64,000 bases of DNA from the NCBI GenBank assembly GCA_026169815.1, contig JAPFDT010000043.1, positions 15,118 to 79,117 on the forward strand, written 5' to 3'. The number at the start of each line of letters is the position of its first letter. Position 1 is the stretch's first letter. The position numbers were made by a program, and so were the translations under genes. Of this stretch, positions 3,317 through 56,840 are shown one piece after another. The stretch is from Pseudogracilibacillus sp. Its GTDB lineage: Bacteria; Bacillota; Bacilli; Bacillales; Amphibacillaceae. The notes below the pieces were generated by a model, which had not been told where the DNA came from, ran no database searches, and saw nothing but the letters and a program-made list of their open reading frames with translations.

Positions 3317-3329
3317 TTACTTAAAAAAA

Positions 3330-3368: not shown

Positions 3369-3374
3369 TCTTCC

Positions 3375-4025
3375 TCCGCTCGGAATTGTGGTGACTTTGC
3401 TCGTTTAGGGTTGCCCCCGCTCGGATTTGTGGTGTCTCTGCTCGTTTTCGGCTCCCCCTGCTCGGATTTCAGGTGTTCTCGCTCGTTTTCGGCAGCCCTC
3501 GCTCGGATTTCAGGTGTCCTCGCTCGTTTTGGTCAGCCCTCGCTCGGATTTTAGGTGTTCTCGCTCGTTTTCGGTTGCCCCCGCTCGGATTTCAGGTGTC
3601 CTCGCTCGTTTTCGGCAGCCCTCGCTCGGATTTGTGGTGTCTCTGCTCGTTTTCGGCTCCCCCCGCTCGGATTTCAGGTGTTCTCGCTCGTTTTGGTCAG
3701 CCCCCGCTCGGATATCAGGTGTCTTCGCTCGTTTTCGGCTACCCTCGCTCGGATTTCAGGTGTTCTCGCTCGTTTTCGGCTACCCTCGCTCGGATTTCAG
3801 GTGGCTTCGCTCGTTTTGGTCAGCCCCCGCTCGGATATCAGGTGTCCTCGCTCGTTTTCGGCTCCCCTCGCTCGGATTTCAGGTGTCCTCGCTCGTTTTC
3901 GGCTCCCCCCGCTCGAATTTCAGCTGTCCTCGCTCGTTTATGATTGCCCTCGCTCGGATTTCAGCTGTCCTCGCTCGTTTTCACAGCTCTTCGCTCGAAT
4001 TTCCAACAATCCCGCTCGTTTAACT
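3375..4025 (+). repeat. Tandem array, 41-bp compound unit (two related ~20/21-bp half units each starting GCTCG), about 16 copies
   Basis: GCTCGG recurs at 3378, 3419, 3460 and onward with exact 41-bp phasing. Unit is roughly GCTCGGATTTCAGGTGTYCTC + GCTCGTTTTCGGCWSCCCYC. All three + frames are open but there is no RBS. Confidence 0.95.
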
Positions 4026-4230
4026 AAAAATTTTATTATTCAAAAGAGGAGAATAGACTCATATTACAACATTCAAAACATCTAAAAGTTGAGAAAAATT
4101 TTTTCCCTCAAAAAATGTCATAATCATTAGGTTTATTGTTGTAAATTGTGGTAGAATAGGTTGTTAGAAGTATAAAAACGATTATAAATGAAATTTGAGA
4201 TAGATTTATAACTAGGAGGACAAAAGAATT

Positions 4231-8400: not shown

Positions 8401-9405
8401 ATGGCTACGATTCGTGATGTCGCCAAACAAGCAGGCGTATCGATTGCGACAGTTTCAAGAGTGATTAACAATAAAGGAAAAATTAAGCAAGAAACCGAAA
8501 CGACAGTTCGCGAGGCGATTAAAAAATTAAATTATATACCTAACAAAGTAGCACAAGGTCTATCAAATCAACGCTCAAATGCAGTTGCATTTATATTACC
8601 TTCGATTAGTAACCCGTTTTTTCCAGAAATGGCACGTGCAGTAGAAGACGTCGCTCAACAACATGGTTACCACGTATTTATCTGTAATACAGATGATAAA
8701 CGAGAAAAGGTGCTAAATTATCTTGATAATTTAGCGACACATTATGTAGATGGCATTATTTTAAATTCACATATAATAAAAGAAGCAGATTTAGAAAAGT
8801 TAAGAAACAACAATATATCAATAGTTATGATGGACCGAGTTTTAGAACACGAAGAAACCACAGCCTTTGCAGTAAAAAATCGTGCAGGAGGACGTAAAGC
8901 AACAGAACATTTACTCGATGTTGGTTGTAAACGAGTTGCCCATATTAGTGGTGTGACAGATATTCCGACTGCTCAAGATCGAATGTGGGGCTATCTTGAT
9001 GTTGTTGGAACCTTGCCATGGTATGACACTAGCTACATTAGTCGAAGTGATTTCACTGTAGAGGGAGGCTATCAAGCGGCGAAAGAATTGTTCATGCGTC
9101 ACCCTGAAGTTGATGGTATTTTTGCAGGGAATGACTTAATGGCAATTGGTGCATTACGAGCAGCACATGAATGGGGGAAGGCGATACCGAATGAATTAGC
9201 GATTGTCGGTTTTGACGGTATTGATATGAGCGCACTTACGACCCCACCAATGACGACAGTACAACAACCAATTTATGAGCTAGGTGAACTTGCAATGAAA
9301 GAATTATTAGGTCATATGAATGACGAAGCATATGAAGCGAAAACAGTGAACCTCGACGTTGAATTAATTATTCGAGAAACGACGATGCGAACACAACAAA
9401 ATTAA
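8401..9405 (+). CDS. rbsR: LacI-family transcriptional repressor of the ribose operon
   Basis: N-terminal HTH MATIRDVAKQAGVSIATVSRVINN plus a periplasmic-binding-protein-like sugar domain. First gene of the rbs cluster. Confidence 0.85.
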   Translation: MATIRDVAKQAGVSIATVSRVINNKGKIKQETETTVREAIKKLNYIPNKVAQGLSNQRSNAVAFILPSISNPFFPEMARAVEDVAQQHGYHVFICNTDDKREKVLNYLDNLATHYVDGIILNSHIIKEADLEKLRNNNISIVMMDRVLEHEETTAFAVKNRAGGRKATEHLLDVGCKRVAHISGVTDIPTAQDRMWGYLDVVGTLPWYDTSYISRSDFTVEGGYQAAKELFMRHPEVDGIFAGNDLMAIGALRAAHEWGKAIPNELAIVGFDGIDMSALTTPPMTTVQQPIYELGELAMKELLGHMNDEAYEAKTVNLDVELIIRETTMRTQQN

Positions 9406-9489
9406 GCAAAGAAAAAGACTATTCGTTCACGATTACAACAATATGATAACTAGAAGACGCGAATCAAGTTGTTAGTGGGAGGAAATAAC

Positions 9490-10431
9490 ATGGCAAAAAT
9501 TTGTGTAGTAGGCAGTGTGAATATGGATATCGTAACATACGTAAATGATATTCCAGTTCGCGGACAAACAGTAAATGGAAAAAAACTAGTAGAAACAGCA
9601 GGAGGGAAAGGAGCGAACCAGGCAGTCGCAGTAGCGAAACAAAATAAAGACGTTGCGCTCATTGGATGTATCGGCGATGATTACCACGGAGATATGTTAC
9701 TCCAAAGTTTACGCGAATATAAGGTCGATACTTCGAAATTGAAACAATTACAAGACACAGCTAGCGGAAAAACATCAATCGTTGTCGAAGATTCAGGGGA
9801 AAATTTCATTATTTATTTAGAAGGTGCTAATAAAAAATTAGACAAAGGCTACGTACGTAACACAATACAAGCCGAAAAGAATTGTGAAGTATTGCTTGTA
9901 CAATTAGAAAGTCCATATGATGTCGTTTTAGAAGCGATGAAAACAGCGCACGAACAAGGAATAAAAGTTATCTTAGATCCAGCACCATCCAATCACGTAA
10001 CAGATGAGTTACTACAGTATGCTCATTTAGTATTACCTAATGAACAAGAAACAAGAGAGATTACTGGTATAACGATTACCGATGAAGCATCAGCGCTCAC
10101 TGCAGCTACTATTTTTAAACAAAAAGGGATTGAACAAGGTGTATTAAAAGTAGGCGCAACAGGCTCATATGTGTTTGACAAACAAGATATGACATTTATC
10201 GATGCCATCCAAGTTAAAGCAATTGACACGGTCGGTGCAGGTGATTGTTTTGCAGGGGCATTTGCAAGTGCATATGTCGATGGATTGTCATTAGTAGAAG
10301 CAGCAAAACACGCTAATATTGTTGCAGCACTAAAAGTAACGAAAGCAGGAGCGCAAGACGGAATACCAACACAACAAGAAGTGAAAGACTTTTGTACGGA
10401 AAGAAACTTACCATGTTATGTAACGAAATAA
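9490..10431 (+). CDS. rbsK: Ribokinase
   Basis: ATG at 9490 follows GGGAGG (the ORF extends back to 9469). PfkB motifs present: [23 protein letters not shown]. Confidence 0.9.
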
Positions 10432-10480
10432 ATCCGGAACAACAAAGTCGAGAAAGAAAAAGAAACTAGGAGGTGCTAAG

Positions 10481-11992
10481 ATGCGACAAACCCCTTTTGT
10501 TGAAATGACAGGAATAGATAAAGCATTCGATGGAAATAAAGTATTGCAGAATGTTCATTTAACGGTAAATAAAGGTGAAGTGCATGCACTCATGGGAGAA
10601 AACGGTGCAGGTAAATCAACTTTAATTAAAATTATGTGTGGGGTTCATTCACGTGATGCAGGTGAAGTGAAAGTAAATAACGAGCCAATTGTATTTAAAA
10701 CACCTAAAGAAGCCGAAGAACGAGGCATTAATATTATTCATCAAGAGTTAAATATTATTCCAGAATTAACTGTGACACAAAACATGTTTTTAGGTAAAGA
10801 GTTAACGTACGGAAAAACAGGTATTTTAAATAAACAAGCAATGCGAAAAGCAACGAAAAAAAGCTTACTAGAACTCGGTGTAGATTCAATTCATCCTGAT
10901 GAATTAGCCGGAAACTTATCAGTTGGTCAGCAACAAATGATCGAAATCGCCCGCGCTCTAGCGACAAAGTCAGAATTAATTGTCATGGATGAACCAACAG
11001 CAGCACTGACTGACCGTGAAATCGAAAGTTTATTCGAAGTTATTAACTCTCTACGTGACCGAGGTGTTAGTATTATTTACGTGTCACATAGAATGGAGGA
11101 AATTTTTGCTATATGTGACCGGATTACTGTATTGCGTGATGGATTATATGTCGGAACAGAAGTAATTAAGGAAACGACATTTGACGATATAGTAAGAATG
11201 ATGGTAGGACGCGAACTAGGTGAACGATTCCCTACGCGTCATGCAGAAATAGGCGATGTCGTTTTATCTGTTGAAAATTTAGCATTAGCAGGCGTATTTA
11301 AAGATGTGAGTTTCCATGTACGAGCTGGTGAAATACTTGGCGTAGCTGGATTAATGGGAGCAGGACGAACTGAAGTAGTCGAAACTATTTTTGGTTATAG
11401 AAAAAAAGAACAAGGTGAAGTAAAGTTACATGGAAAATCGATTGAAATTAACCATCCAGTTGATGCTGTACAACATGGGATAGCCTTTATAACGGAAGAT
11501 AGAAAAGATAAAGGACTACTAATCGACGCGTCGATTCGAGATAATGTCGCTTTAACAAATTTATCAACGATATCAAAATCAGGTGTTGTCATACGCTCAA
11601 AAGAAAAATCCCTCGTCGATGATTTAGTGAAACGGCTGCACGTTCGGATGGCACATGTTCATCAACCAGTGAAAAGTCTAAGTGGAGGAAACCAACAAAA
11701 AGTAGTTATCGCCAAATGGTTAGGCATCCAACCACAAGTATTAATATTAGACGAGCCTACACGTGGTGTTGATATCGGTGCAAAGAAGGAAATCTATTCT
11801 ATTATGAATGAACTAAGTGAAAATGGAGTAGCTATTGTGATGATATCATCGGAATTACCAGAAGTACTAGGCATAAGTGATCGAATTATGGTACTTCATG
11901 AAGGAAAAGTGATGCGTAAGCTACAACGCGAAGAAGCCGATCAAGAAAAAATTATGTTAGCAGCGACTGGGAGGTATCATGATGAGAAATAA
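10481..11992 (+). CDS. rbsA: Ribose/sugar ABC transporter ATP-binding protein (duplicated NBD)
   Basis: Walker [10 protein letters not shown]; signatures LSVGQQQ and LSGGNQQK; 503 aa with two NBDs. Confidence 0.9.
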
Positions 11993-12917
11993 GCTGAGTG
12001 AAAATATAGCAAAAATAGGACCACTCATCGGACTCGTTTTTATAGTTATCTTATTAGCCTTTTTAAGTGATAGCTTTTTAACGGTTGATAATATATTAAA
12101 TTTACTACGTCAAATATCGATTAACGCATTAATTGCATTCGGTATGACATTTGTTATTTTAACAGCTGGAATTGACTTATCTGTCGGGTCTTTACTCGCC
12201 TTAGGAAGTGCTCTGACAGCAGGAATGTTATCGAGCGGAATGGATCCAATTTTAGCGATTTTTCTAGGGTTAATTATTGGATTAGTATTAGGTGCTTTAA
12301 ATGGATTAATTATTACAAAAGGAAAAGTCGCGCCATTTATTGCGACATTAGCGACGATGACGATTTTCCGGGGAGCAACATTAGTATATACAGATGGAAA
12401 ACCAGTAACAGGATTATCTGATAGTGTGTTATTCCAAATGATGGGGAAAGGGTATTTCTTCTTTATTCCAGTTCCAGTCATTATTATGTTAGTCGTCTTC
12501 CTTGTTTTATACTTTATTTTACACAATACAGTGTTTGGCCGCCGCGTCTATGCGGTTGGTGGAAATGAAGAAGCTGCCACATTATCTGGTGTGAAATCAG
12601 ACCGCATTAAAATATTAGTGTACTCACTTACAGGAATGTTAGCTGTTTTAGCAGGGATTATTTTAACGAGCCGTTTGAATTCCGCACAACCGACAGCTGG
12701 AACGATGTATGAACTAGATGCTATTGCAGCAGTCGTAATAGGTGGGACGAGCTTAATGGGTGGACGTGGACGGATTACTGGGACATTGATCGGTGCATTA
12801 ATTATCGGTGTCATTAGTAACGGACTTAACTTACTTAACGTCTCCTCCTTTTATCAACAAATTGTAAAAGGTGCAGTTATCTTATTTGCTGTTATGCTTG
12901 ATCGCAGTCGAGATTAA
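11979..12917 (+). CDS. rbsC: Ribose ABC transporter permease
   Basis: Polytopic membrane protein of the RbsC/AraH family ([20 protein letters not shown]). Overlaps the end of rbsA. Confidence 0.88.
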
Positions 12918-12956
12918 ATTATAAAAAAACACAATATATTATTTGGAGGAATTAAC

Positions 12957-13907
12957 ATGAAAAGAATAATAACGAGTTTTTTAGCATTAACATTATTAAT
13001 TGTTTTAGGAGCATGTTCATTAGATAAACCTGGTTCAGATTCAGACGATGAAGCAACAGATGATAATGCAACAACAGAAGAAGCAAGCGAATTAAAAGTT
13101 GGTTTTTCTATATCGACATTAAACAACCCATTCTTTGTCGATTTACGTAACGGAGCAGAAGACGCAGCAGAAGCAGAAGATATTGATATAGTTGTAGCAG
13201 ATGCACAAGATGATGCTTCTAAACAAATTAATGACATTGAAGATTTATTGCAACAAAATATTGACGTATTAATTGTAAATCCAACAGAAGGAGAATCAGT
13301 TGTCGCTGGTATTGAAGCAGCAAATAATGCGGACATTCCAGTTATTACTGTAGACCGTAGCGCTGCAAGTGGCGAAATCGTCACACATATTGCTTCAGAT
13401 AACGTAAGAGGTGGAGAAATGGCAGCAGAGCACATTGAAGAAATCCTTGGCGCAGATGGAGGTAAATTAATTGAGTTAGAAGGTATTTCAGGTGCCGCAT
13501 CAGCAATTGAACGTGGGGAAGGTTTCCACAATATTATAGATGATTTAACTGAATTCGATATTGTCGCAAGTCAAACGGCAAATTTTGATAGGACAGAAGG
13601 ATTATCAGTAACAGAAAATATTTTACAAGGTAATAAAGATGTTCAAGCTATTTTTGCTCATAATGATGAAATGGCATTAGGTGCCGTTGAAGCGTTAGAG
13701 TCACAAGGTATGTTAGATGATGTTATCGTTGTCGGATTCGACGCGACAGATGATGCGCTGGTAGCAGTAGAAGATGACCGTATGGAAGCGACAATTGCTC
13801 AACAGCCTGATTTAATTAGCGAAGCAGCTATTCAAGCAGCAATTGACATTTATAACGGTGAAGATTTAGAAGATTTCATTCCAGTAGATCTTGAATTAAT
13901 TAAATAA
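12957..13907 (+). CDS. rbsB: Ribose-binding lipoprotein
   Basis: Lipobox LIVLGAC. Periplasmic-binding fold (LKVGFSISTLNNPFFV, IFAHNDEMALGA). Confidence 0.85.
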   Translation: MKRIITSFLALTLLIVLGACSLDKPGSDSDDEATDDNATTEEASELKVGFSISTLNNPFFVDLRNGAEDAAEAEDIDIVVADAQDDASKQINDIEDLLQQNIDVLIVNPTEGESVVAGIEAANNADIPVITVDRSAASGEIVTHIASDNVRGGEMAAEHIEEILGADGGKLIELEGISGAASAIERGEGFHNIIDDLTEFDIVASQTANFDRTEGLSVTENILQGNKDVQAIFAHNDEMALGAVEALESQGMLDDVIVVGFDATDDALVAVEDDRMEATIAQQPDLISEAAIQAAIDIYNGEDLEDFIPVDLELIK

Positions 13908-14364: not shown

Positions 14365-15123
14365 TTATTTCACGTAACCTAATCGCTCAGAGATCTCTTC
14401 TGTCGCTTTCAGTAATTTTTCTGCGTAAATTTTCACATCTTCTGTTTGATAATTTGCTTCCATTCCTGCGATACTTAAACCTGCCACAACATTTCCAGTA
14501 TGATCAAATATCGGAGCCGCTATTTCGGATGTGTAGTCATATAACTCCGAATGACTTACCGTATAACCATCTGTCTTTGCTCGCTCAATTAATTGATACA
14601 ATGTGTTCTTATCCGTGATTGTACCTTTCGCTAACTTAGCAAAATCTGTACCTTCTATATAATCGTCAATGACATCAGTAGGCAAATAAGCTAGAATAAT
14701 GCGCGAACAAGCCCCAGCATACAAAGGACTCTCTCTACCAATGGCCGTATATAAACGCACCTTTTGTTTCGTGTCTATTTTTTCAATATACATCGTCGTG
14801 TCCTTACTTTGTTGGATTGTTAAATTAATCGCTTCTTCCACATCATTATGCAATGCCTTCATAATTGGATAAGCTGTTTCGCGAATATCTAATCGGGAAG
14901 AAACCAGTGAACCAAATTGAAGAAAAATTAGCCCAAGCCGATAATTCGCATCAGCTCCTTTTTCTAAAAATCCCATACCTTCAAGTGTGGACAACATTCG
15001 ATAAACGGACGTTTTAGGAATACCAGATAAATCAATAATCTCTTGAAAAGATAGTTGCGGATGATCGATAAACAAATTTAAAATTTCCATAGAACGGACA
15101 ACTGTTTTATTTTGATAACTCAT
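14365..15123 (-). CDS. IclR-family transcriptional regulator
   Basis: N-terminal wHTH (RSMEILNLFIDHPQLSFQEIIDLSGIPKTSVYRMLSTLE) plus an IclR effector domain. ATG at 15123 lies 8 nt after GAGGTGG (the ORF extends to 15135). Confidence 0.9.
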   Translation of the reverse strand: MSYQNKTVVRSMEILNLFIDHPQLSFQEIIDLSGIPKTSVYRMLSTLEGMGFLEKGADANYRLGLIFLQFGSLVSSRLDIRETAYPIMKALHNDVEEAINLTIQQSKDTTMYIEKIDTKQKVRLYTAIGRESPLYAGACSRIILAYLPTDVIDDYIEGTDFAKLAKGTITDKNTLYQLIERAKTDGYTVSHSELYDYTSEIAAPIFDHTGNVVAGLSIAGMEANYQTEDVKIYAEKLLKATEEISERLGYVK

Positions 15124-15202
15124 TATTAATGCCACCTCATAAAAAATAACCTAAATATATTTTAACATATTTATCCTTAGAACTATAATTGAAGTATAGG
15201 AA

Positions 15203-15702
15203 GTTGATCGTTCTCCTATCTTGGAATTTGCTCTCCCGCTTTGGACTTTGCTCTCCCGCCTTGTAATTTGCTCTCCCGCCCTGGAATTTGCTCTCCCTCT
15301 TTGGACTTTGCTCTCCCGCTTTGGACTTTGCTCTCCCGCCTTGTAATTTGCTCTCCCGCCCTGGAATTTGCTCTCCCGCTCTGGATTTTGCTCTCCCGCC
15401 CTGGAATTTGCTCTCCCTCCTCGGACTTTGCTCTCCCGCCCTGGACTTTGCTCTCCCGCCTTGGATTTTGCTCTCCCGCCCTGGAATTTGCTCTCCCGCT
15501 TTGGACTTTGCTCTCCCGCCTTGTAATTTGCTCTCCCGCCTTGGAATTTGCTCTCTCGCCTTGGAATTTGCTCTCCCGCCCTGGAATTTGCTCTCCCTCT
15601 TTGGACTTTGCTCTCCCGCCCTGGATTTTGCTCTCCCGCCCTGGAAATTGCTCTCCCGCCTTGGAAATTGCTCTCCCTACCCGCATTTTGCTCTCGCTCT
15701 GC
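15203..15702 (-). repeat. Tandem array of about 25 x 20-bp units, core GAGAGCA on the minus strand
   Basis: The + strand reads TTGCTCTCCCGCCYTGGAAT head-to-tail; reverse complement consensus is GAGAGCAAATTCCAAGGCGG. At least five reading frames are open and none has an RBS. Confidence 0.95.
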
Positions 15703-15975
15703 AAAACTTTCACAATCCCTCATGAATTATCACTTTTCGAGATTAAATTACTTGTAAACTTGTATGATGCGTGTATCATGGAAAAGTATAAGAAGTTGTT
15801 CAAAAAGTCTGGTAAAAAGAATGATTTGCTTTTCTTGATAGGTTTGCTATTTAACGTGCATCAGCTATTTTCATAATTTTTTCTGTTAAAAAACGCAACC
15901 GAATCGAAATGCTAGATTTTTTATCCTCTTGATGAACAAATAGTAGAGATTTTTTATTAAATAGGAGGACATCGT

Positions 15976-16833
15976 ATGCGTAAAATTATCTTTTCAGTTT
16001 GTTTAGGACTTATCCTTATATTAGCCGCTTGCAGTAACGATGAGGAAACAAATGACAACACAGAAGCGGCACCAACACCCGTAGAAGTAGCAAAAGTAAA
16101 AACAGGTGATTTTATTATTGAAAAAACATTGTACGGTGAAACATCACCTGAGAAACAAATGCCAGTTATGCTAGAACAGCCGTCAGAGATTAAAACTGTT
16201 CACGTAAAAAATGGCGACAAAGTAAAAAAAGACGATAAACTCATTACGATAAAAACACCAGCAGGAGATCAATCGGTCAATGCAAGTACAGATGGAGTGG
16301 TTGGCCAATTAACAGCAAAAGCAGGAAGTTTCCAATCAAATGAAGACCCAATTCTTGTCATTGCAGATTTAGATACATTAACCATTCATTATATGGTCAC
16401 AGCGAATGCACGCGATTTATTTAAAGTAGACGATAAGCTAGATGTTGAAATAAACAATGACACTTATGAAGCAAAAGTAACCTCGATTGACACATTACCG
16501 AATGAAACAGGCCAATATGCAGTCGAGTTTGAATTAGAAAATAAAGATAACGACGTTTTACCTGGTGAACCAGCAAAGGTGAAGGTAGCAGAGGAAAAGG
16601 TGAAGAAAACGAAAATCATTCCAACAGAAGCGGTTCTTACAGAAGGGGATGAACAATTCATCTTTATCGTCCGTGACGACCAGGTTGAGCGTGTCCTTGT
16701 TGAAGTCCAAGAAACACAATCAGATAAATCAGCTGTAAAAGCAGACATAAAAAAAGATGATCAAGTCGTCGTAAATGGGCACTTTACATTGACAGATCAA
16801 GCAGAAATCGACGTTCAAAAGGAAGATAAATAA
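15976..16833 (+). CDS. Efflux RND transporter periplasmic adaptor (membrane fusion protein), lipoprotein
   Basis: Lipobox LILILAAC; biotinyl-lipoyl-like and beta-barrel segments. Immediately precedes the RND pump and is translationally coupled to it. Confidence 0.75.
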   Translation: MRKIIFSVCLGLILILAACSNDEETNDNTEAAPTPVEVAKVKTGDFIIEKTLYGETSPEKQMPVMLEQPSEIKTVHVKNGDKVKKDDKLITIKTPAGDQSVNASTDGVVGQLTAKAGSFQSNEDPILVIADLDTLTIHYMVTANARDLFKVDDKLDVEINNDTYEAKVTSIDTLPNETGQYAVEFELENKDNDVLPGEPAKVKVAEEKVKKTKIIPTEAVLTEGDEQFIFIVRDDQVERVLVEVQETQSDKSAVKADIKKDDQVVVNGHFTLTDQAEIDVQKEDK

Positions 16834-16835
16834 CG

Positions 16836-19800
16836 ATGAAATTAGTTTCCTTATCCGTTAGAAGACCTGTTGGCGTCATTATGATTGTACTAGCGATTAT
16901 TGCCCTAGGGTTTGTCTCGGTTCGAAATTTAGCCGTTGATTTATTCCCGAAAATTGATTTACCAATCGCAGTTATTGCGACAACATATGACGATGCAGCA
17001 CCAGAAGAAGTTGAAAATCTCATATCCAAACCAGTAGAATCAGCGATTAGTTCTGTTGAAGGAATTGAGGAAGTCCAGACACAATCCGAAACAGACGCAT
17101 CAGTCGTTGTTATGATGTTTAAAAATGGTACAGATTTAGACCAAGCATTACTCGATGTGAGAGAACGAGTCGATCAAGTAAAAGGTATGTTACCTGACAG
17201 GGCAGGAGATCCAAATATTATGCGTTTTAGCCCTGATGAATTACCTGTTATGTGGATTAGTCTAACAGGTCAAGATACGGATGTATTAACAGACCTGGCG
17301 GATGACCAAGTCGTGCCATTTTTTGAACGACAAGAAGGAGTCGCCTCTGTATCTGTCGAAGGGGAAAAAACTCGTGAAATTCAGCTCATTTTAGATGAAG
17401 CGGCAATGATGCAATATGGGGTCAACCCACAAGAAGTCATGCAAGCTTTAAATGATGCAAACCAAGCAAGTTCTGTCGGTACAATTGATAAAGGTACCCA
17501 AGACTTACAAGTACGTATGACAGGTGAATTTGCATCCATTGACGATATTAAGCAAACGACCATTACATCACAGTCTGGAGCAAGTATCGTCGTCCAAGAT
17601 GTAGCCGAGGTAAAAGATGATTTTAAAAAGTCAGATGATCTCACCCTTGTAAATGGTGATCCATCACTCGTCTTATCAATTATGAAAAAGACGGACGCAA
17701 ACTCAGTTGACGTAGCAAAAAATATTCATAAATATATCGCTGATTTAGAAGAAGATTTACCAGCAGATGTCGGTGTGAATGTCGTAATCGATACATCAGA
17801 GTTCATTCAAGAATCGGTTGATTCCGTTATTCAAAATATTTTAATCGGTGGCGCGATATCTGTTTTCGTTTTACTATTATTTTTAAAAAGTATTCGTGCA
17901 ACAATTGTTATTGGTTTATCGATACCAATTGCGATTATTTCAACATTTGCACTCATGTACTTTACCGGTGAAACGTTAAATATTTTAACACTCGGTGGTT
18001 TAGCACTAGGAATCGGAATGATGGTAGACAGTTCCATCGTTATTTTGGAAAATATATATTCCTACAGGCAGCGTGGTCACGATCTAATTGATTCAGCGAT
18101 TAAAGGAGCTGCGGAATTAACGCCGGCCGTAATTGCATCAACGACAACTACATTAGTCGTCTTTTTACCGATTGTGTATGTGGAAGGAATCGCATCAGAT
18201 ATTTTCACACCACTCGCTTTAACGGTCTCATTTTCGTTAATCGCATCACTAGTCGTTGCGGTAACATTAGTGCCAATGCTTTCATCGAAATTATTATCAA
18301 AAGCAATGGACGATGGACGACGCTATTGGTTCGATAATCTATTAGAAAAATTAAACAACACTTATGCACGGGCACTAGAAAAAGTATTGAAATTTAGAAA
18401 AACATCTATTCTCGTAACGGTCTTATTAATGGTTGGAAGTTTAGGACTCATTCCATTTATTGGTGCAGAATTCATTCCAGCTGGAGATCAAGGACAATTA
18501 ACCGTTAATGTAGAAACAGCACCAGGAACGAACGTCAAACATACGGAAAAAGTCGTTGACCAAGTAAATGAAAAAATGAATAAATATGAAGATACGATTG
18601 ACGTTAGTTACGTCACAGTTGGTGGCGGAGATTTTGCAACAGGCGGATCAAGCGGAAACCAAGCTAGTTTTACTGTCCAATTAGTTCCGCAATCTGACCG
18701 TTCCATGACAACAGCTGAATTCGTACAAAAATTAAATGACGATGTAGCATCGATTGCCGGAGCAGAGATTACGATAAGTGAAATGGAAGCAGGCGTCGGT
18801 ATGGGCGACCCAATCCAAATTAACTTAAACGGAAAAGAACATGACGTCCTCCGTGATTTAGGAAATCAAGTCGTCGCAGAAATAGAGGATATCGATGGCG
18901 TGTACAATCCAGAATCAGGATCAGACTTAGGTGTTCCACAATTAAAAGTAGAAATTGATCAAGATAAAGCAGCATTTCACAAGTTATCAACTGAAGATAT
19001 TCAATCGCAAATTGAAATGAATTTTATCGGGCAAGTCGTCACAGTATATCGCGAAGACGGACGTGAAATTGACGTCACGATGATGTACCCAGAAGACGCC
19101 CATAATACAATTGCAGATTTAGAAGATATGAAAATCCAAACAGAAGAAGGTGCCAGCATCCCACTCGTCGATGTCGCAGATTTTATCGAAGAGCAAGGAG
19201 CCGTCACATTAGTTAGGCAAAATCAACAAGCACAAATGAGCGTTACATCAGAATTATCTGATCGAGATTTAAGCAGTGTAACGAAAGATATCGAAAAAAC
19301 ATTAGATAAGATGAGCTTCCCAGAAGGATATACGTATTCGATCGGCGGCGAAGCAGAAGACATGCAAGAATCATTCGCAGATTTAACAATGGCACTTATC
19401 TTCTCGATATTCTTAGTTTACGCTGTAATGGCAATTCAATTTGAAAACTTTTTATTCCCGTTCATCATCATGTTTTCAATGCCAGCAACCGTTATCGGAA
19501 TTGTATTCGGATTATTTGTCAGTGGTCTATCATTTAGTATTCCAGCGTTCATCGGTATTATTATGCTCGCCGGAATCGTCGTTAACAACTCCATCATCCT
19601 CGTCGACTATATTAATATATTGCGACGTCGCGGCATGGAACGTCATGAAGCAATTATCGAAGCCGGAAAAAGCCGACTCCGCCCAATACTCATGACAACA
19701 TTAACGACAGTCCTAGCGATGATCCCACTCGGTTTAGCACTAGGCGAAGGAGCGGAAATGCAACAACCACTCGCCATAACAATTATATTCGGCTTGAGTG

Positions 19801-19895
19801 TATCAAGTATATTCACACTACTACTCATCCCAATCGTCTACACATACTTTGACGATTTAACGAGAAAAATCTTACGCCGAGATACAAATATTTAA
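16836..19895 (+). CDS. RND (AcrB/SwrC-type) efflux transporter permease
   Basis: 1019 aa. N-terminal RRPVGVIMIVLAIIALG, 12-TM architecture with two large loops, and a C-terminal RLRPILMTTLTTVLAMIPL motif. Confidence 0.92.
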   Translation: MKLVSLSVRRPVGVIMIVLAIIALGFVSVRNLAVDLFPKIDLPIAVIATTYDDAAPEEVENLISKPVESAISSVEGIEEVQTQSETDASVVVMMFKNGTDLDQALLDVRERVDQVKGMLPDRAGDPNIMRFSPDELPVMWISLTGQDTDVLTDLADDQVVPFFERQEGVASVSVEGEKTREIQLILDEAAMMQYGVNPQEVMQALNDANQASSVGTIDKGTQDLQVRMTGEFASIDDIKQTTITSQSGASIVVQDVAEVKDDFKKSDDLTLVNGDPSLVLSIMKKTDANSVDVAKNIHKYIADLEEDLPADVGVNVVIDTSEFIQESVDSVIQNILIGGAISVFVLLLFLKSIRATIVIGLSIPIAIISTFALMYFTGETLNILTLGGLALGIGMMVDSSIVILENIYSYRQRGHDLIDSAIKGAAELTPAVIASTTTTLVVFLPIVYVEGIASDIFTPLALTVSFSLIASLVVAVTLVPMLSSKLLSKAMDDGRRYWFDNLLEKLNNTYARALEKVLKFRKTSILVTVLLMVGSLGLIPFIGAEFIPAGDQGQLTVNVETAPGTNVKHTEKVVDQVNEKMNKYEDTIDVSYVTVGGGDFATGGSSGNQASFTVQLVPQSDRSMTTAEFVQKLNDDVASIAGAEITISEMEAGVGMGDPIQINLNGKEHDVLRDLGNQVVAEIEDIDGVYNPESGSDLGVPQLKVEIDQDKAAFHKLSTEDIQSQIEMNFIGQVVTVYREDGREIDVTMMYPEDAHNTIADLEDMKIQTEEGASIPLVDVADFIEEQGAVTLVRQNQQAQMSVTSELSDRDLSSVTKDIEKTLDKMSFPEGYTYSIGGEAEDMQESFADLTMALIFSIFLVYAVMAIQFENFLFPFIIMFSMPATVIGIVFGLFVSGLSFSIPAFIGIIMLAGIVVNNSIILVDYINILRRRGMERHEAIIEAGKSRLRPILMTTLTTVLAMIPLGLALGEGAEMQQPLAITIIFGLSVSSIFTLLLIPIVYTYFDDLTRKILRRDTNI

Positions 19896-19941: not shown

Positions 19942-20240
19942 GGAGCGAAATCTTGAGCGGGAGAGCAAGATTCTGATTGGGAGAGCAAGACTCTGATTGG
20001 GAGAGCAGAGTTTTAGTTAGGAGAGCAAAGTTTTAGTTAGGAGAGCAAAGTTTTAGTTTGGAGAGCAAGGTTTTAGTTTGGAGAGCAAAGTTTTAGTTTG
20101 GAGAGCAAGGTTTTGTTTGGGAGAGCAAAGTTTTGTTTGGGAGAGCAAGGTTTTAGTTGGGAGAGCAAGGTTTTGTTTGGGAGAGCAAGATTCTGATTGG
20201 GAGAGCAAGAATCTGAGCTCGAGAGCAAAATCACGATCGT
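19942..20240 (+). repeat. Tandem array of 15 x 20-bp units, core GAGAGCA on the plus strand
   Basis: GAGAGC occurs at 19961, 19981 ... 20221 with exact 20-bp phasing. Consensus is GAGAGCAARRTTYTRDTTKG. Confidence 0.95.
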
Positions 20241-20303: not shown

Positions 20304-21266
20304 TTATTTAACAATTGTCCATTTGTAACGTGTGGCTTGTTTTATATTTTGAGATTGTTGAAGAATATATTTTGTTGTGTGGCGAGAGTTTAGTTGTAAG
20401 AATTGGCGACATTGCGGATTAGTTAATGTTTCATTAAATAATATTTTAAAATCCTGTAAAGCTTTTTCATGTGCATTGTTGCAAGTTGCACTACATGATG
20501 GACAATACCAATTGCCTGTTTTGCGCTTCATTCCGAGAAAGTTACATTGTGGGCATTGAACACCAGACAAGATTTCTGATGGATGAATTTGGTATTTCTT
20601 CATAATATCAATCATAAAATCTTCACAGTTACGCATTATATGTTGAACCACTTTATTCCTAGAATGTGAACTTTTTTCAATAGGGTGTTTAGAGGCAAGT
20701 TCTTCATTGAGTCTCCTTACTTGGTGCGGAATATCTTCTACATACGTGACAATATTTTTTAAACTATTTTCCTCACCTTTCACTTTGATATAAGTGCTGC
20801 GTTCTGAAAAGGCAACGAAGTAATAAATTGGTAAACCACTTTGTTTAGCTATTTGAAGGAAGCGCAGTAAGTTTGCTTGGACTGTTTGCACTTGAGTAAT
20901 TGGATATTTATAACGTTCAATATCACCTTCTATATCGCGATAACATTGTCTTAAAGTCGTATCAAAGGTGATAATTCCGGTAAAACTTTTTACTTCAACA
21001 ATGAAAATCGCATGATCTGAGACGATAAGTGAATCAATTTGCGTTTGCTTGTTATGCAAGGAGAAACAAACATCAGCCATAATTGTAAAATCATCAGACA
21101 AACCTTCAATATGATAATCAAGTTTTCTTTCTCCATTATAGCCCTTTTGTAGCTTGGCGGCATCGATACGCAAATCTTTTAACTGTGGATGATTACTAGG
21201 CAATCTCGGTATCAATGCATCTAACATTTGTAATGGTAGTGGACGATTACGATAGCGTATTATCAT
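20304..21266 (-). CDS. NERD (nuclease-related domain) protein with C-terminal zinc ribbon
   Basis: NERD signature KGYNGERKLDYHI ... HAIFIVEVKSFTG. C-terminal CPQC-x14-CPSC ribbon. Confidence 0.85.
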   Translation of the reverse strand: MIIRYRNRPLPLQMLDALIPRLPSNHPQLKDLRIDAAKLQKGYNGERKLDYHIEGLSDDFTIMADVCFSLHNKQTQIDSLIVSDHAIFIVEVKSFTGIITFDTTLRQCYRDIEGDIERYKYPITQVQTVQANLLRFLQIAKQSGLPIYYFVAFSERSTYIKVKGEENSLKNIVTYVEDIPHQVRRLNEELASKHPIEKSSHSRNKVVQHIMRNCEDFMIDIMKKYQIHPSEILSGVQCPQCNFLGMKRKTGNWYCPSCSATCNNAHEKALQDFKILFNETLTNPQCRQFLQLNSRHTTKYILQQSQNIKQATRYKWTIVK

Positions 21267-21447: not shown

Positions 21448-21768
21448 GGAGAGCAAGATCTAAGAGTGAGAGCAAAATCCAGAGCGGGAGAGCAGATTCC
21501 AGAGCAGGAGAGCAGATTCCAGAGCAGGAGAGCAGATTCCAGAGCAGGAGAGCAAATTCCAAGGCGTGAGAGCAAATTCCAAGGCGTGAGAGCAAATTCC
21601 AGGGCGTGAGAGCAAATTCCAAGGCGAGAGAGCAAATTCCAAGGCGGGAGAGCAGATTCCAAGGCGTGAGAGCAATCTCCAAGGCGTGAGAGCAAATTCC
21701 AAGGCGTGAGAGCAAATTCCAAGGCAGGAGAGCAGATCACCAAAATAAGTGAGCGATCATTTCCTAAG
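21448..21768 (+). repeat. Tandem array of about 15 x 20-bp units plus a degenerate terminal unit, core GAGAGCA on the plus strand
   Basis: GAGAGC occurs at 21448, 21467, 21487 ... 21728. Consensus is GAGAGCARATTCCARGGCGT. The terminal unit is GTGAGCGATCATTTCCTAAG. Confidence 0.95.
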
Positions 21769-21874: not shown

Positions 21875-22087
21875 TTGAAAAGAAACTCGCGTGAAGAAAC
21901 GATTAAATCAACCGCTTATTTACTCCAAATAAAAAACTATGTAGGTAAGAGTATTAATGATATTATTGAACATAGTGGTTCACCAAGAGGATCGCTTTAC
22001 TATCATTACCCAAAAGAAAAGGAACAATTAGCGCTCGAAGTAGTTTTAAGGACGAAAGAAAATCTGACAGCTTTTATCACAGATTAA
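21875..22087 (+). pseudogene. TetR-family regulator, N-terminal HTH fragment only (~70 aa)
   Basis: The TTG at 21875 follows AAAGGGGAG. The sequence REETIKSTAYLLQIKNYVGKSINDIIEHSGSPRGSLYYHYPKEKEQL is a TetR HTH. The ORF stops where the ligand domain should begin. Confidence 0.65.
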
Positions 22088-22989: not shown

Positions 22990-23032
22990 ATCTGAGTACT
23001 GAATCGAAATGGATTTAGTACTCAGATTTTTC
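22990..23032 (+). terminator. Terminator after deoC
   Basis: ATCTGAGTACT pairs with AGTACTCAGAT, followed by TTTTT. Confidence 0.85.
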
Positions 23033-23215
23033 ATTCCTCATAATGGGATAGCCTCATTTAATATATTTTCCTTTTATATCAGGTATTATTAACAGTTTGT
23101 TCTACCTAAAAATATTATTCGCTACAGAAGAGATAATATCCTTTTGACAAAATGAACATTAAATCTCCAAACAAAAACATAATCTCCTAATAATCGTCAC
23201 TTTCCCCTTTAATAT

Positions 23216-23245
23216 TTGCAACTATAGCTTAACTTTCGCTATAAT
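23216..23245 (+). promoter_or_regulatory. Sigma-A-type promoter upstream of tagO
   Basis: TTGCAA (23216-23221), 18-nt spacer, TATAAT (23240-23245). Confidence 0.5.
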
Positions 23246-23290
23246 CTAATAGCAAAGTAAAAATGCAGGAACTTTAATGAGGGATATATT

Positions 23291-24388
23291 ATGTTAAATT
23301 ACGTTGATTTAATGATTGCTTCCTTTATTGCACTCATATCAACATTTATATTAACGTTTGGAGTAAGGAAATTTGCCTTTCGCTTTAATTTTGTCGATTT
23401 CCCCAACCAACGTAAAATTCATAAACATGTTACACCACGTATCGGTGGATTAGGTATATTTTTAGGAGCGGCATTAGGACTGCTTTATTTACAACCAGAA
23501 CATATTCATTTAACGGGAATTTCACTAGGGGCGCTCGTCATCGTAATTACTGGATTATTAGATGACCGACTCGACATTCGTCCAATCATAAAATTAACTG
23601 GACAACTTGTCGCAGCATCGTTTCTTATCTCATCTGGATTAATTATTGAAAAAGTAACACTACCATTCTTCGGCATGATCGAATTAGGCGCATTTAGCGT
23701 GCTCATTACGTTTTTATGGGTTGTTGGGATAACGAACGCAATTAACTTAATCGACGGCTTAGATGGACTTGCTTCAGGCGTTTCGACGATTGCACTTTCA
23801 AGTATGTTCGTTATGGCATTAATTGATTTACAAATTTTTGCCGCCTTTTTATGTGTCGTCTTAATCGGAGCTAATTTAGGTTTTTTATACCACAATTTCT
23901 ATCCAGCAAAAATTTATATGGGCGATACTGGATCGAACTTTCTAGGATATATGATTGCCGTCATTTCAATGCTCGGTTTATTTAAAAATATCGCCTTATT
24001 CAGTTTCGTTATTCCAGTCATCGTGCTGGCTATTCCTATTTTTGATACATTATTCGCCATATTACGACGTGCTTCCAATAAACAAGGTATTATGATGGCC
24101 GATAATAAACATATTCATTATCAATTACTAGACGCAGGTTTCTCACATAGACAAACTGTGCTCATCATATATGGATTTAGTTTCATTTTCGGAGTACTTG
24201 CTATTGTATTTACAGAAGCATCTTTCCTTGTCTCAGCTTTAGTAACGCTATTTGTGCTATTTTTAATCCACATTCTAGCCGAGCTAGCAGGAGTTGTATT
24301 AGGAGGAAGACGACCTGTTGTAGATGGGATATTGAATATATTAGGGATTCGTACAGACGAATCAGAAGAAGACCACTTTAACGAATAA
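23291..24388 (+). CDS. tagO: Undecaprenyl-phosphate GlcNAc-1-phosphate transferase (MraY/WecA family)
   Basis: Polytopic membrane protein with NAINLIDGLDGLASG and YMGDTGSNFLGY motifs. Confidence 0.9.
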   Translation: MLNYVDLMIASFIALISTFILTFGVRKFAFRFNFVDFPNQRKIHKHVTPRIGGLGIFLGAALGLLYLQPEHIHLTGISLGALVIVITGLLDDRLDIRPIIKLTGQLVAASFLISSGLIIEKVTLPFFGMIELGAFSVLITFLWVVGITNAINLIDGLDGLASGVSTIALSSMFVMALIDLQIFAAFLCVVLIGANLGFLYHNFYPAKIYMGDTGSNFLGYMIAVISMLGLFKNIALFSFVIPVIVLAIPIFDTLFAILRRASNKQGIMMADNKHIHYQLLDAGFSHRQTVLIIYGFSFIFGVLAIVFTEASFLVSALVTLFVLFLIHILAELAGVVLGGRRPVVDGILNILGIRTDESEEDHFNE

Positions 24389-24390
24389 AA

Positions 24391-24429
24391 AAATCCGCAA
24401 ACACATTAGACGTGTTCGCGGATTTTTTC
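24391..24429. terminator. Bidirectional terminator between tagO and the convergent TagB-like gene
   Basis: ATCCGCAAACAC pairs with GTGTTCGCGGAT (one mismatch), flanked by an A-run and a T-run. It overlaps the last codons of the minus-strand gene. Confidence 0.7.
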
Positions 24430-25602
24430 TGTTTCAACTTCAACTTCTAGTTCATATATTGTTTGAATTAACTGTGCACTTGATTCCCCATGCGAATATT
24501 TATTCCATTCCTCAGCAAAAGGTTTTACCCGTTCTAATTGGAATGATTTTTCTTTAATTACTTCAATAATTTCATCAGTAGTCTCAACGACAGGACCGGG
24601 AACACGTGTATAATAATCTTTCCATAGTCCACGCTTTTCCATATAATCATCAAAGTCATAAGCATAAAAGATCATTGGTCGATTTAATAGAGAAAATTCA
24701 AATGGAATCGATGAATAATCTGTTATTAAAATATCTGTTCCGATTAATAAATGATTAATATCCGCATAATTGGATACATTATAAATGAATCCTGGATATT
24801 TATTTTCGAACGAATGATTCACAGCAGGATGTAATCGTAAAAACAAAATATAATCATGTTTAAAATGTTGATACATTTTATCTAAATTAATTTTTAATGT
24901 ACCGTTATTTAATTCATCATCTCGATAAGTAGGCGCATATAAAATTACCTTTTTATCTTTTATTAATGGAAAATTACTTCGCAAAATTTGCTGTGTTTCT
25001 TGTTTTTTTATATCATCAAAGAAGAAATCAGTTCTCGGAATTCCTGTCTTAATAAAACGTTCTTCAGGTAAATCAAAACTATCTTGAAATATATCAATCA
25101 TGCGATCTGAACCAACTGTTACGTAGTCAAATCGATTATAAACTTGTTTAAATCTTCCTAAAGCCTTATCTGTACGTGTTTCATTAGTTAAATCTTCTAA
25201 ACCAAACTTCTTAATAGCTCCAGCAGCATGCCATAATTGAACACACTTAACCTTAGTATCAAACTCAGTAACAGCTAAAAACCCATAGTAATTATCGACA
25301 AACACATAACGCGCCGTCGCTAAATGATAGATTGACGTAATAAAATCCTTTAATCTACTAGCCTCAAAATTTAGTACCGTTTGATTCGATGTTTCTACAA
25401 ATCTATTCCTATTATTCTCATTCGTTAAGACAATAGTAGTATGATTATCTACCATTTGATTTAATTGATTCAGAGTAGCTTCAATATTACCACCAAATGA
25501 AGCTACAAATACGGTTTTATCTTGTAATGGTTTACGTTTAAAAAAGTTAAACATAACTTTGAAACAGAATAAATATAGTGAAATGAAAAATTCTCTACGC
25601 AT
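24406..25602 (-). CDS. CDP-glycerol glycerophosphotransferase (TagB/TagF family)
   Basis: 398 aa of the Glyphos_transf type (VQLWHAAGAIKKFG, ILYAPTYRDDE, LITDYSSIPFEFSLLNRPMIFYAYD). Overlaps tagD by 8 nt. Confidence 0.85.
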   Translation of the reverse strand: MRREFFISLYLFCFKVMFNFFKRKPLQDKTVFVASFGGNIEATLNQLNQMVDNHTTIVLTNENNRNRFVETSNQTVLNFEASRLKDFITSIYHLATARYVFVDNYYGFLAVTEFDTKVKCVQLWHAAGAIKKFGLEDLTNETRTDKALGRFKQVYNRFDYVTVGSDRMIDIFQDSFDLPEERFIKTGIPRTDFFFDDIKKQETQQILRSNFPLIKDKKVILYAPTYRDDELNNGTLKINLDKMYQHFKHDYILFLRLHPAVNHSFENKYPGFIYNVSNYADINHLLIGTDILITDYSSIPFEFSLLNRPMIFYAYDFDDYMEKRGLWKDYYTRVPGPVVETTDEIIEVIKEKSFQLERVKPFAEEWNKYSHGESSAQLIQTIYELEVEVETEKIREHV

Positions 25603-25993: not shown

Positions 25994-26205
25994 TTAATAA
26001 CCTCCGAATTATATTCAGTACTTTCTAGATTATACTACAGACTTAGTTTAAATTCGATATAATAGGATGAATTATAATTGGTAAATATTGATGTTATTTC
26101 AAGTTATCGTCACATTGTATAAAATTTCACTAAAATAAATAGAGAATTCTTTTACAAAAAGTAGTAGTAGTATTATACTTATTAGTTGTAGAGGAGGTGA
26201 AATGA

Positions 26206-28617: not shown

Positions 28618-28642
28618 GAAATAAGAGTTTCATAGTATTAAT

Positions 28643-56463: not shown

Positions 56464-56840
56464 GAGAGCAAAATTCTGAGTGGGAGAGCAAGATTCTAAG
56501 AAGGAGAGCAAAATTCTAAGAAGGAGAGCAAAATTCTAAGAAGGAGAGCAATATTTGAGTTGGGAGAGCAATATTTGAGTTGGGAGAGCAAGATTCTGAG
56601 GGGGAGAGCAAGATTCTGAGAGGGAGAGCAAGATTCTGAGCGGGAGAGCAAGATTTGAGGGGGAGAGCAATATTTGAGTTGGGAGAGCAAGATTTGAGAA
56701 GGGAGAGCAAGATTCAGAGTTGGAGAGCAAGATTCAGAGTTGGGAGAGCAAGATTCAGAGTTGGGAGAGCAAGATTCTGAGGGGGAGAGCAAGATTCTGA
56801 GGGGGAGAGCAAATTTTGAAGCGGGTGAGCACCTCCAGCG
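56464..56840 (+). repeat. Tandem array of about 18 x 19/20/21-bp units, core GAGAGCA on the plus strand
   Basis: GAGAGC occurs at 56464, 56484 ... 56644, then 56663, 56683, 56703, 56723, 56744, 56765, 56785 and 56805, with a degenerate GTGAGC at 56825. It is a mosaic of subtypes (AAAATTCTAAGAAG, AATATTTGAGTTGG, AAGATTCTGAGRGG, AAGATTCAGAGTTG). Confidence 0.95.

Follow-up and report, generated by a model that had tools for sequence, protein, structure and literature searches.

Between a gene for an IclR-family regulator and a divergently transcribed operon for an HlyD-type adaptor and an AcrB-type RND efflux pump, Pseudogracilibacillus sp. carries an array of 20-bp units repeated head to tail (15203 to 15702, array A2, in the 64,000-nucleotide stretch of contig JAPFDT010000043.1 analyzed here, hereafter the window). 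The present analysis concerns this array, four further arrays of the window, and a gene lying between two of them that encodes a predicted nuclease of the NERD family, which we consider as a candidate partner of the arrays. Tandem Repeats Finder (TRF) places A2 at 15220 to 15677, with a period of 20, 22.9 copies, 87% matches, and 0 indels, and a count of the conserved core finds 24 perfect copies of GAGAGCA on the minus strand, advancing in exact 20-bp steps from 15229 to 15695. The borders of A2 are formed by degenerate units on either edge, and the edge units of GAGAGCA arrays are degenerate in such forms as GAGCGA..., GTGAGCA..., and GAGAACG.... A preliminary description of this DNA, made from the sequence alone, had proposed about 25 head-to-tail copies in a divergent iclR/RND-efflux setting, further GAGAGCA arrays at 19942, 21448, and 56464, a diverged array near 3375 to 4025, and an intergenic location for all of them. 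Gene annotation, TRF, and core counts bear these points out, with 24 perfect cores plus edge units in A2 and the diverged array at 3376 to 4020, where the unit is 41 bp long (Table 1). In the repeat analysis A3 runs from 19959 to 20232, A5 from 56458 to 56840, and the period-41 stretch of A1, in which two units of ~20.5 bp alternate, from 3376 to 3982.

All five arrays of the window are intergenic (5/5) and three of the five lie between divergent genes. They represent two families, GAGAGCA and GAGCGR, the core of A1 being GAGCG(A/G) on the minus strand, or CGCTCG when read on the plus strand. A2 and A4 have an identical consensus unit (GAGAGCAAATTCCAAGGCGG) in opposite orientation, A3 and A5 carry different 12-nt parts, and A3 sits past the terminators of both its flanking genes. 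Within the window there are 74 copies of the heptamer GAGAGCA where 5.5 would be expected (standard deviation 1.9), 71 of the 74 lying inside arrays, and the pattern of three cores at 20-bp spacing occurs 57 times where 0 are expected. When the 71 units of the four GAGAGCA arrays are aligned, departures from the array consensus affect 0 of 497 core positions, whereas they affect 184 of 852 positions across the remaining 12 nt of the unit; on a per-array count of ~45 distinct variable positions, the chance of sparing the seven core positions is p ~4e-9. The spacing is held in the same manner, 63 of the 67 steps in GAGAGCA arrays being exactly 20 bp, as expected of the dispersed family with strict two-turn phasing that had been described initially.

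The period is not a multiple of three, the units contain stop codons (in two arrays, in every 60 nt of the A3 and A5 units), and some steps measure 19 or 21 bp; the arrays are therefore non-coding, and an interpretation as coding repeats was ruled out on these grounds. Six 120-nt pieces, taken on both strands, fold into hairpins no better than their shuffles do (z from +0.06 to +2.43), and Rfam gives no match in the window at gathering thresholds. The arrays thus lack both coding capacity and structure, and their core and spacing are protected. Neither similarity among the flanks of the window arrays nor a leader-and-tail structure as in MITEs (miniature inverted-repeat transposable elements) was found. 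Resemblances to Chi-like, SpoIIIE-recognition-like, sigma-54, and ARG-box motifs were dropped, as these motifs are not conserved across arrays.

Table 1. Repeat arrays of the window and the genes that bear on their interpretation
Feature	Coordinates	Strand	Description
A1	3376..4020	-	Second family; 41-bp higher-order unit, equal to two units of ~20.5 bp; between CoA-transferase terminator and mbl
IclR-family regulator gene	14365..15135	-	Flanks A2; likely start is the ATG at 15123
A2	15203..15702	-	24 units x 20 bp, consensus GAGAGCAAATTCCAAGGCGG; solo, no adjoining nuclease gene
HlyD-type adaptor and AcrB-type RND pump genes	15976..19895	+	Flank A2 on its other side
HlyD gene	15976..16833	+	
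AcrB gene	16836..19895	+	
A3	19942..20240	+	14-15 units, consensus GAGAGCAAGGTTTTGGTTGG; begins after AcrB terminator, ends 64 bp beyond NERD stop codon (gene 3' side)
NERD (PD-(D/E)XK) nuclease gene	20304..21266	-	320 aa; CxxC...CxxC zinc ribbon; C-terminal helical, winged-helix-like domain; candidate array partner
A4	21448..21768	+	15-16 units, consensus GAGAGCAAATTCCAAGGCGG as in A2; 182 bp upstream of NERD start codon; direct orientation with A3
A5	56464..56840	+	18-19 units, consensus GAGAGCAAGATTCTGAGTGG; three steps of 19 or 21 bp; solo; between divergent NAD-binding and aldo-keto reductase genes

The preliminary description had also stated that no transposase accompanies the arrays, which is literally true, but it overlooked the NERD gene (20304 to 21266) that is flanked by A3 and A4. 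The product matches Pfam NERD (PF08378) with E = 6.9e-16, above the curated cut-off. In an alignment of 38 homologs that are 33 to 87% identical, a GxxGE...D segment, D78, and (E/D)91-x-K93 (the PD-(D/E)XK motif) are invariant or nearly so, and C238, C241, C255, and C258, which form the zinc ribbon, are invariant; toward the C terminus there follows a likewise conserved helical segment of ~60 residues that resembles a winged helix. The AlphaFold2 model has a predicted local distance difference test score (pLDDT) of 93.3 and a predicted template-modeling score (pTM) of 0.85, and Foldseek returns matches to the nuclease domain only, all with low template-modeling scores (Card1, Can2, Bax1, the R2 endonuclease domain, Cas4, Hjc, and RecU). 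No whole-protein relative with a solved structure was found by sequence, and as an assignment to a curated family or defense system only weak partial matches to the N termini of PglW and MAD6 kinases came up, far below the cut-offs. Judged by its motifs, the protein is a member of the NERD PD-(D/E)XK group with the catalytic motif intact, and hence a predicted nuclease. The family comprises 931 clusters (50% identity, E <= 1e-30), nearly all of them full length at 310 to 330 aa, and its members are 21 to 63% identical where Mbl is 85 to 95% identical, which indicates a large and fast-evolving family.

Arrays and NERD genes lie side by side well beyond the window. A Pfam census of the 46 proteins flanking 25 arrays found no shared neighbor other than NERD beyond orthologous pairs, and no transposase. 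In Amphibacillus indicireducens the NERD homolog lies 15 bp from an array, in two relatives NERD homologs adjoin arrays of a different core, TAACCACG, and in Virgibacillus ndiopensis the 5' end of the NERD gene faces a 35-unit array upstream of mbl. Homologs on long contigs, selected by homology only and not by arrays (Lentibacillus jeotgali, Virgibacillus sp. L01, Virgibacillus salinus, Pseudogracilibacillus sp. SO30301A, and one metagenome-assembled genome, MAG), have adjoining 20- to 21-bp arrays in five cases out of five, each with its own core. Protein homology yielded 20 metagenome loci, 18 of which are countable (L115, a duplicate of the window, and the truncated L134 were left out), and 16 of these 18 have adjoining arrays. 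Taking together all loci not selected for arrays, and including the mbl-selected locus L108, 22 of 24 are positive by TRF. Measured along the DNA, 28 arrays fall within 300 bp of NERD gene ends, in 13.4 kb, as against 11 in the other 100.2 kb, a 19-fold enrichment, and arrays make up 33.6% of the bases within 500 bp of the gene as against 4.1% farther off.

In most loci, downstream arrays begin 14 to 219 bp past the NERD stop codon. Upstream arrays stop 113 to 480 bp ahead of the start codon, and in 10 of the 11 loci that have an array on either side, the two are in direct orientation. Many database homologs stand on contigs of 1.05 to 1.7 kb that carry the NERD gene alone, as would be expected if repeats on both sides break short-read assemblies. 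The gene occurs in at least six contexts, and its neighbors include AcrB (window, L. jeotgali) and elsewhere spoIIID/mbl, purA, or phosphotransferase system genes; since these genomic neighbors differ between lineages, inheritance of a single locus fails to explain the linkage. As a separate observation, the SO30301A contig (L113) carries two Rpn/Transposase_31-like PD-(D/E)XK genes (3149 to 4150 and 10036 to 10941) less than 5 kb from its NERD gene, which has a 30-unit array.

The cores differ from lineage to lineage, broadly in step with the protein tree. In a neighbor-joining tree of 26 NERD proteins, clades share the cores TTGCTC (the window clade, read on the coding strand of the gene), GCACAT, AGTCGCGCACGAAC, AACTCG(C/A)GC, and CGCTC(C/G). 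The A1-type unit of the window (CGCTCG) has its counterpart on contig L131, where it follows a second, divergent NERD paralog that falls in the CGCTC clade; The metagenome that yielded L131 also contains a copy of the window locus at 96% identity, and the two have the same G+C content. Because this non-coding DNA is similar across proteins that are only 40 to 60% identical, selection on the core would be needed to maintain it.

A species-level scan (one genome per species, requiring three GAGAGCA(A/G) cores at 20-bp spacing) finds multi-locus families only in halophilic or alkaliphilic Bacillales, namely Amphibacillus, Virgibacillus, Oceanobacillus, Lentibacillus, Gracilibacillus, Domibacillus, and Alkalicoccobacillus, with a period of 20 throughout and 12-nt parts specific to the genus. 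Matches in other phyla (Lentisphaeria, Planctomycetota, and others) are mostly 10-bp arrays or single arrays of three to eight copies, such as are expected among many existing tandem repeats, and were for that reason taken as chance. As to a plasmid or phage origin, blastn comparison with 72,556 plasmids and 50,697 phages gave no match; IMG/VR holds one match to the arrays, which is probably chance. Gene contexts of 25 arrays over several genera are tandem in 13 cases, divergent in 5, and convergent in 4, so that placement between divergent promoters is not a rule, and of the arrays in tandem contexts 9 have the core in sense orientation and 4 do not, a bias that is not significant.

Comparison with close relatives shows how quickly the arrays change. 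L096, a contig from a relative with 92% identity in the IclR protein and almost the same flanks, has arrays at three of the window sites: one upstream of mbl, one between the IclR and HlyD genes, and one past the AcrB terminator. The IclR/HlyD array has ~8 units there versus 24 in the window, and the 12-nt parts differ while the core is kept. Orthologous arrays of A. indicireducens and a near-identical MAG have 42 versus 9 and 17.7 versus 14.7 units, numbers to be read with the caution that MAG and short-read assemblies may under-count array units. TTGTGCA and GAGAGCA arrays adjoin in A. indicireducens, the period being the same despite the change of core, and the TAACCACG arrays occur in relatives whose Mbl is 95% identical to that of the window. 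Pseudogracilibacillus auburnensis, whose Mbl is 92% identical to the window Mbl, has the pump without IclR and without an array, and no array was found in 21 kb of its sequence. The best reading of A2 is that it is a solo array of variable copy number (24 units versus ~8 in the close relative).

An array stands upstream of mbl in the window, in L096, in L108/L109, and in V. ndiopensis, but not in A. indicireducens or P. auburnensis, and it was discarded as a conserved feature in its own right; the NERD gene gives a better account of arrays at this site, because it sits there in L108/L109 and in V. ndiopensis. In the window a CoA-transferase pair is inserted between spoIIID and mbl, where L108/L109 have the NERD gene and two arrays. 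Elsewhere along the same region, a sugar ABC-transporter block of ~5.5 kb (8401 to 13907) separates fabZ from the IclR gene in the window, and L096 is without the block.

Several observations concern the make-up of particular arrays and their assembly. Short-read contigs carrying the exact window IclR all end within A2, and one metagenome contig (L115, 1 to 249) fuses the IclR-side flank to the NERD-side array (window 15127 to 15376 and 21500 to 21740), an assembly chimera through A2 and A4, the two arrays with one consensus unit in common. Arrays of this kind break short-read assemblies and yield chimeric contigs, which calls for caution with such genomes. In V. ndiopensis, three arrays have a common leader of ~115 bp (L021, 4885 to 5000; L023, 3145 to 3258; L037, 3105 to 3220) and two of them a common tail of ~85 bp (L023, 3532 to 3620; L037, 3698 to 3785); leader and tail carry an inverted repeat of ~18 bp (AAAATGCGACGTAAAC versus AAAATGTGACGTAAGT), in the manner of a MITE-like carrier resembling BrickBuilt, the Porphyromonas gingivalis element considered below. 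A fourth array of this species (L029) is without the carrier. After fabZ in A. indicireducens (L081, 2729 to 3739), two 20-bp arrays with different cores abut, the first having 13 units of ACTTGTGCA(C/T)AAA that contain the palindrome TTGTGCACAA and the second 37 units with ACTTGAGAGCAA; both share an ACTTG...CA..AATC frame.

Although the preliminary description did not recognize the arrays as a described repeat family, the class to which they belong is already published. Fixed-length repeats have been reported since 2019 in Bacillus, Paenibacillus, and other bacteria (PMC8161180), an earlier paper of Subirana and Messeguer on the class having appeared in BMC Evol Biol in 2019 (PMC6749651). 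In a survey of 176 Bacillus genomes, most non-coding tandem repeats were of constant length, either 52 nt or 20 to 21 nt (781 cases), and many species were very poor in repeats (PMC8161180). Repeats of 20 to 21 nt have species-specific sequences, one genome can carry several families, and all units keep a short signal; they are only partially conserved between strains, and array length is seldom conserved (PMC8161180). They were termed enigmatic, their length corresponding to two helical turns and no function or partner protein being known, and the proposals made for them were a DNA-polymerizing protein or transcription into small RNAs or sponges; for the 52-nt class, no Cas-like partner protein was evident (PMC8161180).

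The window arrays share the properties of the 20- to 21-nt class throughout: a fixed length (20 in four arrays and 41, or 2 x ~20.5, in the fifth), a sequence that varies by family and species while the length is kept, a short sequence that is invariant in 71 units, a non-coding, intergenic location with several families, and partial conservation with array length seldom kept (24 versus ~8 units). A J Bacteriol paper of 2020 by Subirana and Messeguer is also said to be an earlier contribution, cited in the 2021 Int J Mol Sci survey. The survey in PMC8161180 is confined to genomes named Bacillus and makes no mention of the GAGAGCA core, a Pseudogracilibacillus-like source, Amphibacillus, Virgibacillus, Oceanobacillus, or Lentibacillus; it names no associated gene, whereas arrays of the window type are linked to NERD genes. 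No published account of that link was found in the literature that could be searched. The repeat class, then, is already published, and the NERD association is what is added here.

Other repeat systems share single features with the arrays. CRISPR loci likewise alternate conserved and variable segments regularly beside a nuclease-type gene, but the arrays have no unique spacers, as the preliminary description had seen, and no cas-type domains occur in the flanking genes; their conserved part is 7 to 13 nt and their variable part ~7 to 12 nt, the latter consisting of variants of one sequence, and a genome is expected to contain dozens of array loci, not just a few. Kinship with REP/BIME or BOX elements, rejected at the outset, is contradicted by the lack of a stable hairpin in the unit, the pieces folding no better than shuffles. 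Dispersed families with a conserved short core include STAR in Staphylococcus aureus, the STRR heptamers of heterocystous cyanobacteria, and MIRU in mycobacteria. Together with the TAACTGA direct repeats of Beggiatoaceae (PMC4679880), these resemble the window arrays in being intergenic, multi-copy, lineage-restricted, and variable in copy number; they differ in having units of 7 nt, 14-nt cores with ~40-nt spacers, or units of 46 to 101 nt with small open reading frames (ORFs), and they are not known to have a strict 20- to 21-nt length class or a linked nuclease gene.

BrickBuilt, a MITE of Porphyromonas gingivalis with an internal minisatellite, consists of tandem 23-nt units without spacers, is always intergenic, and occurs in many copies (Klein et al. 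2015, PMC4596501). It has leader and tail segments with small inverted-repeat ends, and no nuclease gene was reported (PMC4596501). Only V. ndiopensis L021, L023, and L037 have the leader and tail; phylum and unit differ, and the window arrays, like those of most other genera, are without common flanks.

A parallel in geometry is offered by plasmid iterons and centromere arrays, which, like the window arrays, are direct repeats of about two turns with a conserved core and a variable rest. In P1, 19-bp iterons (incC and incA) stand on both sides of repA, and sopC of the F plasmid comprises twelve 43-bp repeats after sopB. Iterons flank the gene of their binding protein on one side or on both, as the arrays flank the NERD gene, and specificity diverges with the protein. 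Unlike iterons, the arrays that adjoin NERD genes are paired with a PD-(D/E)XK nuclease rather than with a protein of Rep or ParB type, are much longer (as many as 42 units), and occur scattered across the chromosome; their context is chromosomal (spoIIID, mbl, flhO/P, fabZ) and they match nothing in the plasmid and phage collections searched, so they are not iterons or partition sites in the strict sense.

On balance, and at a little better than an even chance, we favor an explanation in which the arrays act in cis as the DNA partner of a sequence-specific NERD nuclease that has a zinc ribbon and a C-terminal helical, DNA-binding-like domain, the solo arrays, including the one between IclR and the RND operon, belonging to the same family. 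The NERD protein would recognize one core after another along nearly the same face of the helix, and its binding or nicking would constrain the core and the 20- to 21-bp spacing while the remainder of the unit drifts and unequal exchange shifts the copy number. A NERD gene typically lies between two arrays in direct orientation, with copies of the same family scattered in other intergenic regions. Solo arrays such as A2 may be leftovers or may offer the same protein additional sites; recombination between the flanking direct arrays could give rise to them, much as it does to solo long terminal repeats, or alternatively by ectopic copying, which is considered because A2 and the NERD-proximal A4 have an identical consensus unit. 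That the protein binds or cuts the arrays is what we infer from the genomic pattern. We lean toward a module that is selfish or semi-selfish, a core cellular function or other role for the host being the less probable alternative, because distribution among species is patchy, array turnover is quick, the catalytic residues are conserved, divergence is fast, and there are many paralogous lineages.

Several points weigh against this explanation. The link between arrays and NERD genes is genomic in kind, and clade-shared cores could partly reflect co-inheritance of the gene with its adjoining DNA rather than recognition. Pairing is also imperfect: the A. indicireducens NERD protein is just 23% identical to that of the window, yet it stands beside the same TTGCTCTC core, and the L. 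jeotgali locus holds a second array family besides the flanking one. Two of the 24 loci have no array detectable by TRF at the gene (one of them shows three units by eye), most arrays of a genome lie far from any NERD gene, and the published 20- to 21-nt class is present also in phyla outside those covered by the NERD linkage check. Finally, a homolog on a Bacillus thuringiensis plasmid has a mere 3.8-copy 20-bp repeat upstream, so that long arrays are not obligatory. In that plasmid (571 kb, NZ_CP151868.1; L135, 3909 to 3985), the distant NERD homolog, of 30% identity, is preceded by three AATCGTTGATATATT copies, spaced 20 and 40 bp apart, the last of which ends 16 bp ahead of the start codon; this may represent a minimal, operator-like form of the arrangement of array and gene.

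The strict 20- to 21-bp spacing and the conserved core would equally suit a host chromosome-structuring platform, on which a nucleoid-associated or silencing protein other than NERD polymerizes with two-turn spacing and organizes the nucleoid or insulates promoters. Such a role is favored in the discussion of PMC8161180 by Subirana and Messeguer, and it would fit the presence of arrays in intergenic regions of every kind, often after terminators or between divergent promoters. We nevertheless regard it as rather unlikely: cores differ among close relatives (GAGAGCA, GAGCGR, TAACCACG, TTGTGCA), so that a conserved housekeeping protein would need repeated changes of specificity; arrays are patchy among species, with none in 21 kb of P. 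auburnensis and with many repeat-poor species in PMC8161180; and the 19-fold enrichment by one gene family would be left unexplained. The preliminary description had put forward a cooperative binding platform for a nucleoid-associated, partition-like, or silencing protein, and what stands of this is the direction toward cooperative protein binding, the candidate being the NERD nuclease and not a classical nucleoid or partition protein. A function at the RNA level, in which transcribed repeat RNAs serve as protein sponges or are processed into ~20-nt units that work with the adjoining nuclease, draws on the downstream arrays, which begin 14 to 150 bp past the stop codon in most loci and are near enough to be co-transcribed with the NERD gene, on the sense orientation of the core in tandem contexts (9 versus 4), and on the reported transcription of 52-nt repeats in B. 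coagulans (PMC8161180, PMC8625621). It is unlikely in view of the lack of any Rfam match and of predicted structure on either strand (z >= 0), the lack of a significant orientation bias relative to neighboring genes, the position of A3 beyond the terminators of both flanking genes, and the variable 12 nt, which are variants of one another and not unique guides. Nor is the Shine-Dalgarno-like GGAG conserved, and the earlier proposal of a sponge for 30S subunits or a CsrA-type protein is not supported: the G before the core is not kept (TTGAGAGCA in Amphibacillus, GTGAGAGCA in A4), and cores elsewhere are unrelated.

Could the arrays be neutral or purely selfish minisatellites without a partner, produced through slippage and unequal exchange and dispersed on MITE-like carriers or by ectopic recombination, their adjacency to NERD genes stemming from linkage or permissive sites? 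Copy number behaves like that of a variable-number tandem repeat, higher-order repeats of 40, 60, and 80 bp are typical of unequal exchange, three V. ndiopensis arrays have a BrickBuilt-like 115-bp leader, 85-bp tail, and ~18-bp inverted repeat, and the distribution is patchy. Neutral drift, however, would not spare the core (0/497 versus 184/852) or keep a 20- to 21-bp period across lineages with unrelated cores, linkage alone fails for NERD genes in at least six genomic contexts, cores are preserved across proteins only 40 to 60% identical, and the window arrays are without common flanks; we therefore hold this account to be improbable. More local in scope is the idea, also raised initially as a slippage-prone spacer between divergent promoters, that A2 is a contingency locus at which gain or loss of 20-bp units alters promoter-operator distance or phasing and so tunes efflux. 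A2 does fill the divergent region, its length differs by ~16 units between two close relatives (24 versus ~8, the part of the proposal that stands), and divergent genes border three of the five arrays in the window. The best promoter-like sites, however, lie outside A2 on either side (15752 to 15779 for the efflux operon, 15136 to 15200 for IclR), so that the number of units leaves the internal spacing of both promoters unchanged; steps of 20 bp hold the helical phase nearly constant; most arrays across genera are in tandem or convergent contexts, the divergent setting being no rule; and the P. auburnensis pump has neither IclR nor array. No evidence was found that A2 regulates IclR or the pump, and a contingency function seems very improbable indeed.

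Returning to the pairing of arrays with NERD nucleases, a wider statement has, in our judgment, an even chance of being correct: the 20- to 21-nt repeats of Bacillaceae and a co-evolving nuclease with NERD, zinc-ribbon, and helical segments would together form a two-part system, in which the core is read once per two turns, the gene lies between direct arrays, and solo arrays are sites or remnants, serving either as a nuclease-plus-satellite element or for chromosome marking. Such a system, if real, would be of a previously unrecognized kind and would extend over more than 900 divergent protein clusters. If the link holds, the fixed length of the repeats would be explained by the geometry of a protein array on DNA and their species-specific sequence by co-evolution with the protein, and a new type of bacterial nuclease-and-satellite module would be defined. 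The published class gains a candidate partner protein that can be tested, and the window arrays add to that class a new lineage and a clean case of constraint on core and spacing.

Other features of the window are of a different nature. At 54837 to 55326, in the intergenic region after a Schlafen/AlbA_2 and HATPase_c_4 gene (53258 to 54715), lie 4.1 copies of a 119-bp unit that are 95% identical, each with two GAGCCTCTCG motifs; the length of this unit is unrelated to the 20-bp class. Just downstream of A4, a short ORF (21875 to 22087) encodes a TetR N-terminal helix-turn-helix only (70 aa) and is probably a TetR pseudogene remnant. From 23000 to 43000 the G+C content is low, 24 to 33% versus ~36 to 40% around it, and the genes are concerned with the cell wall and teichoic acids (glycosyltransferases, TarS/Glyphos_transf, an SH3-repeat amidase, and a glucosaminidase); a 213-bp tandem repeat (30050 to 31089) lies inside a gene for a 1031-aa SH3-repeat glucosaminidase (28684 to 31779, minus strand). 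Repeats of 33 and 39 bp at 62645 to 63090 lie inside a LysM/NlpC-P60 gene (62116 to 63714, minus strand) and, being coding and a multiple of three in length, are unrelated to the 20-bp class.

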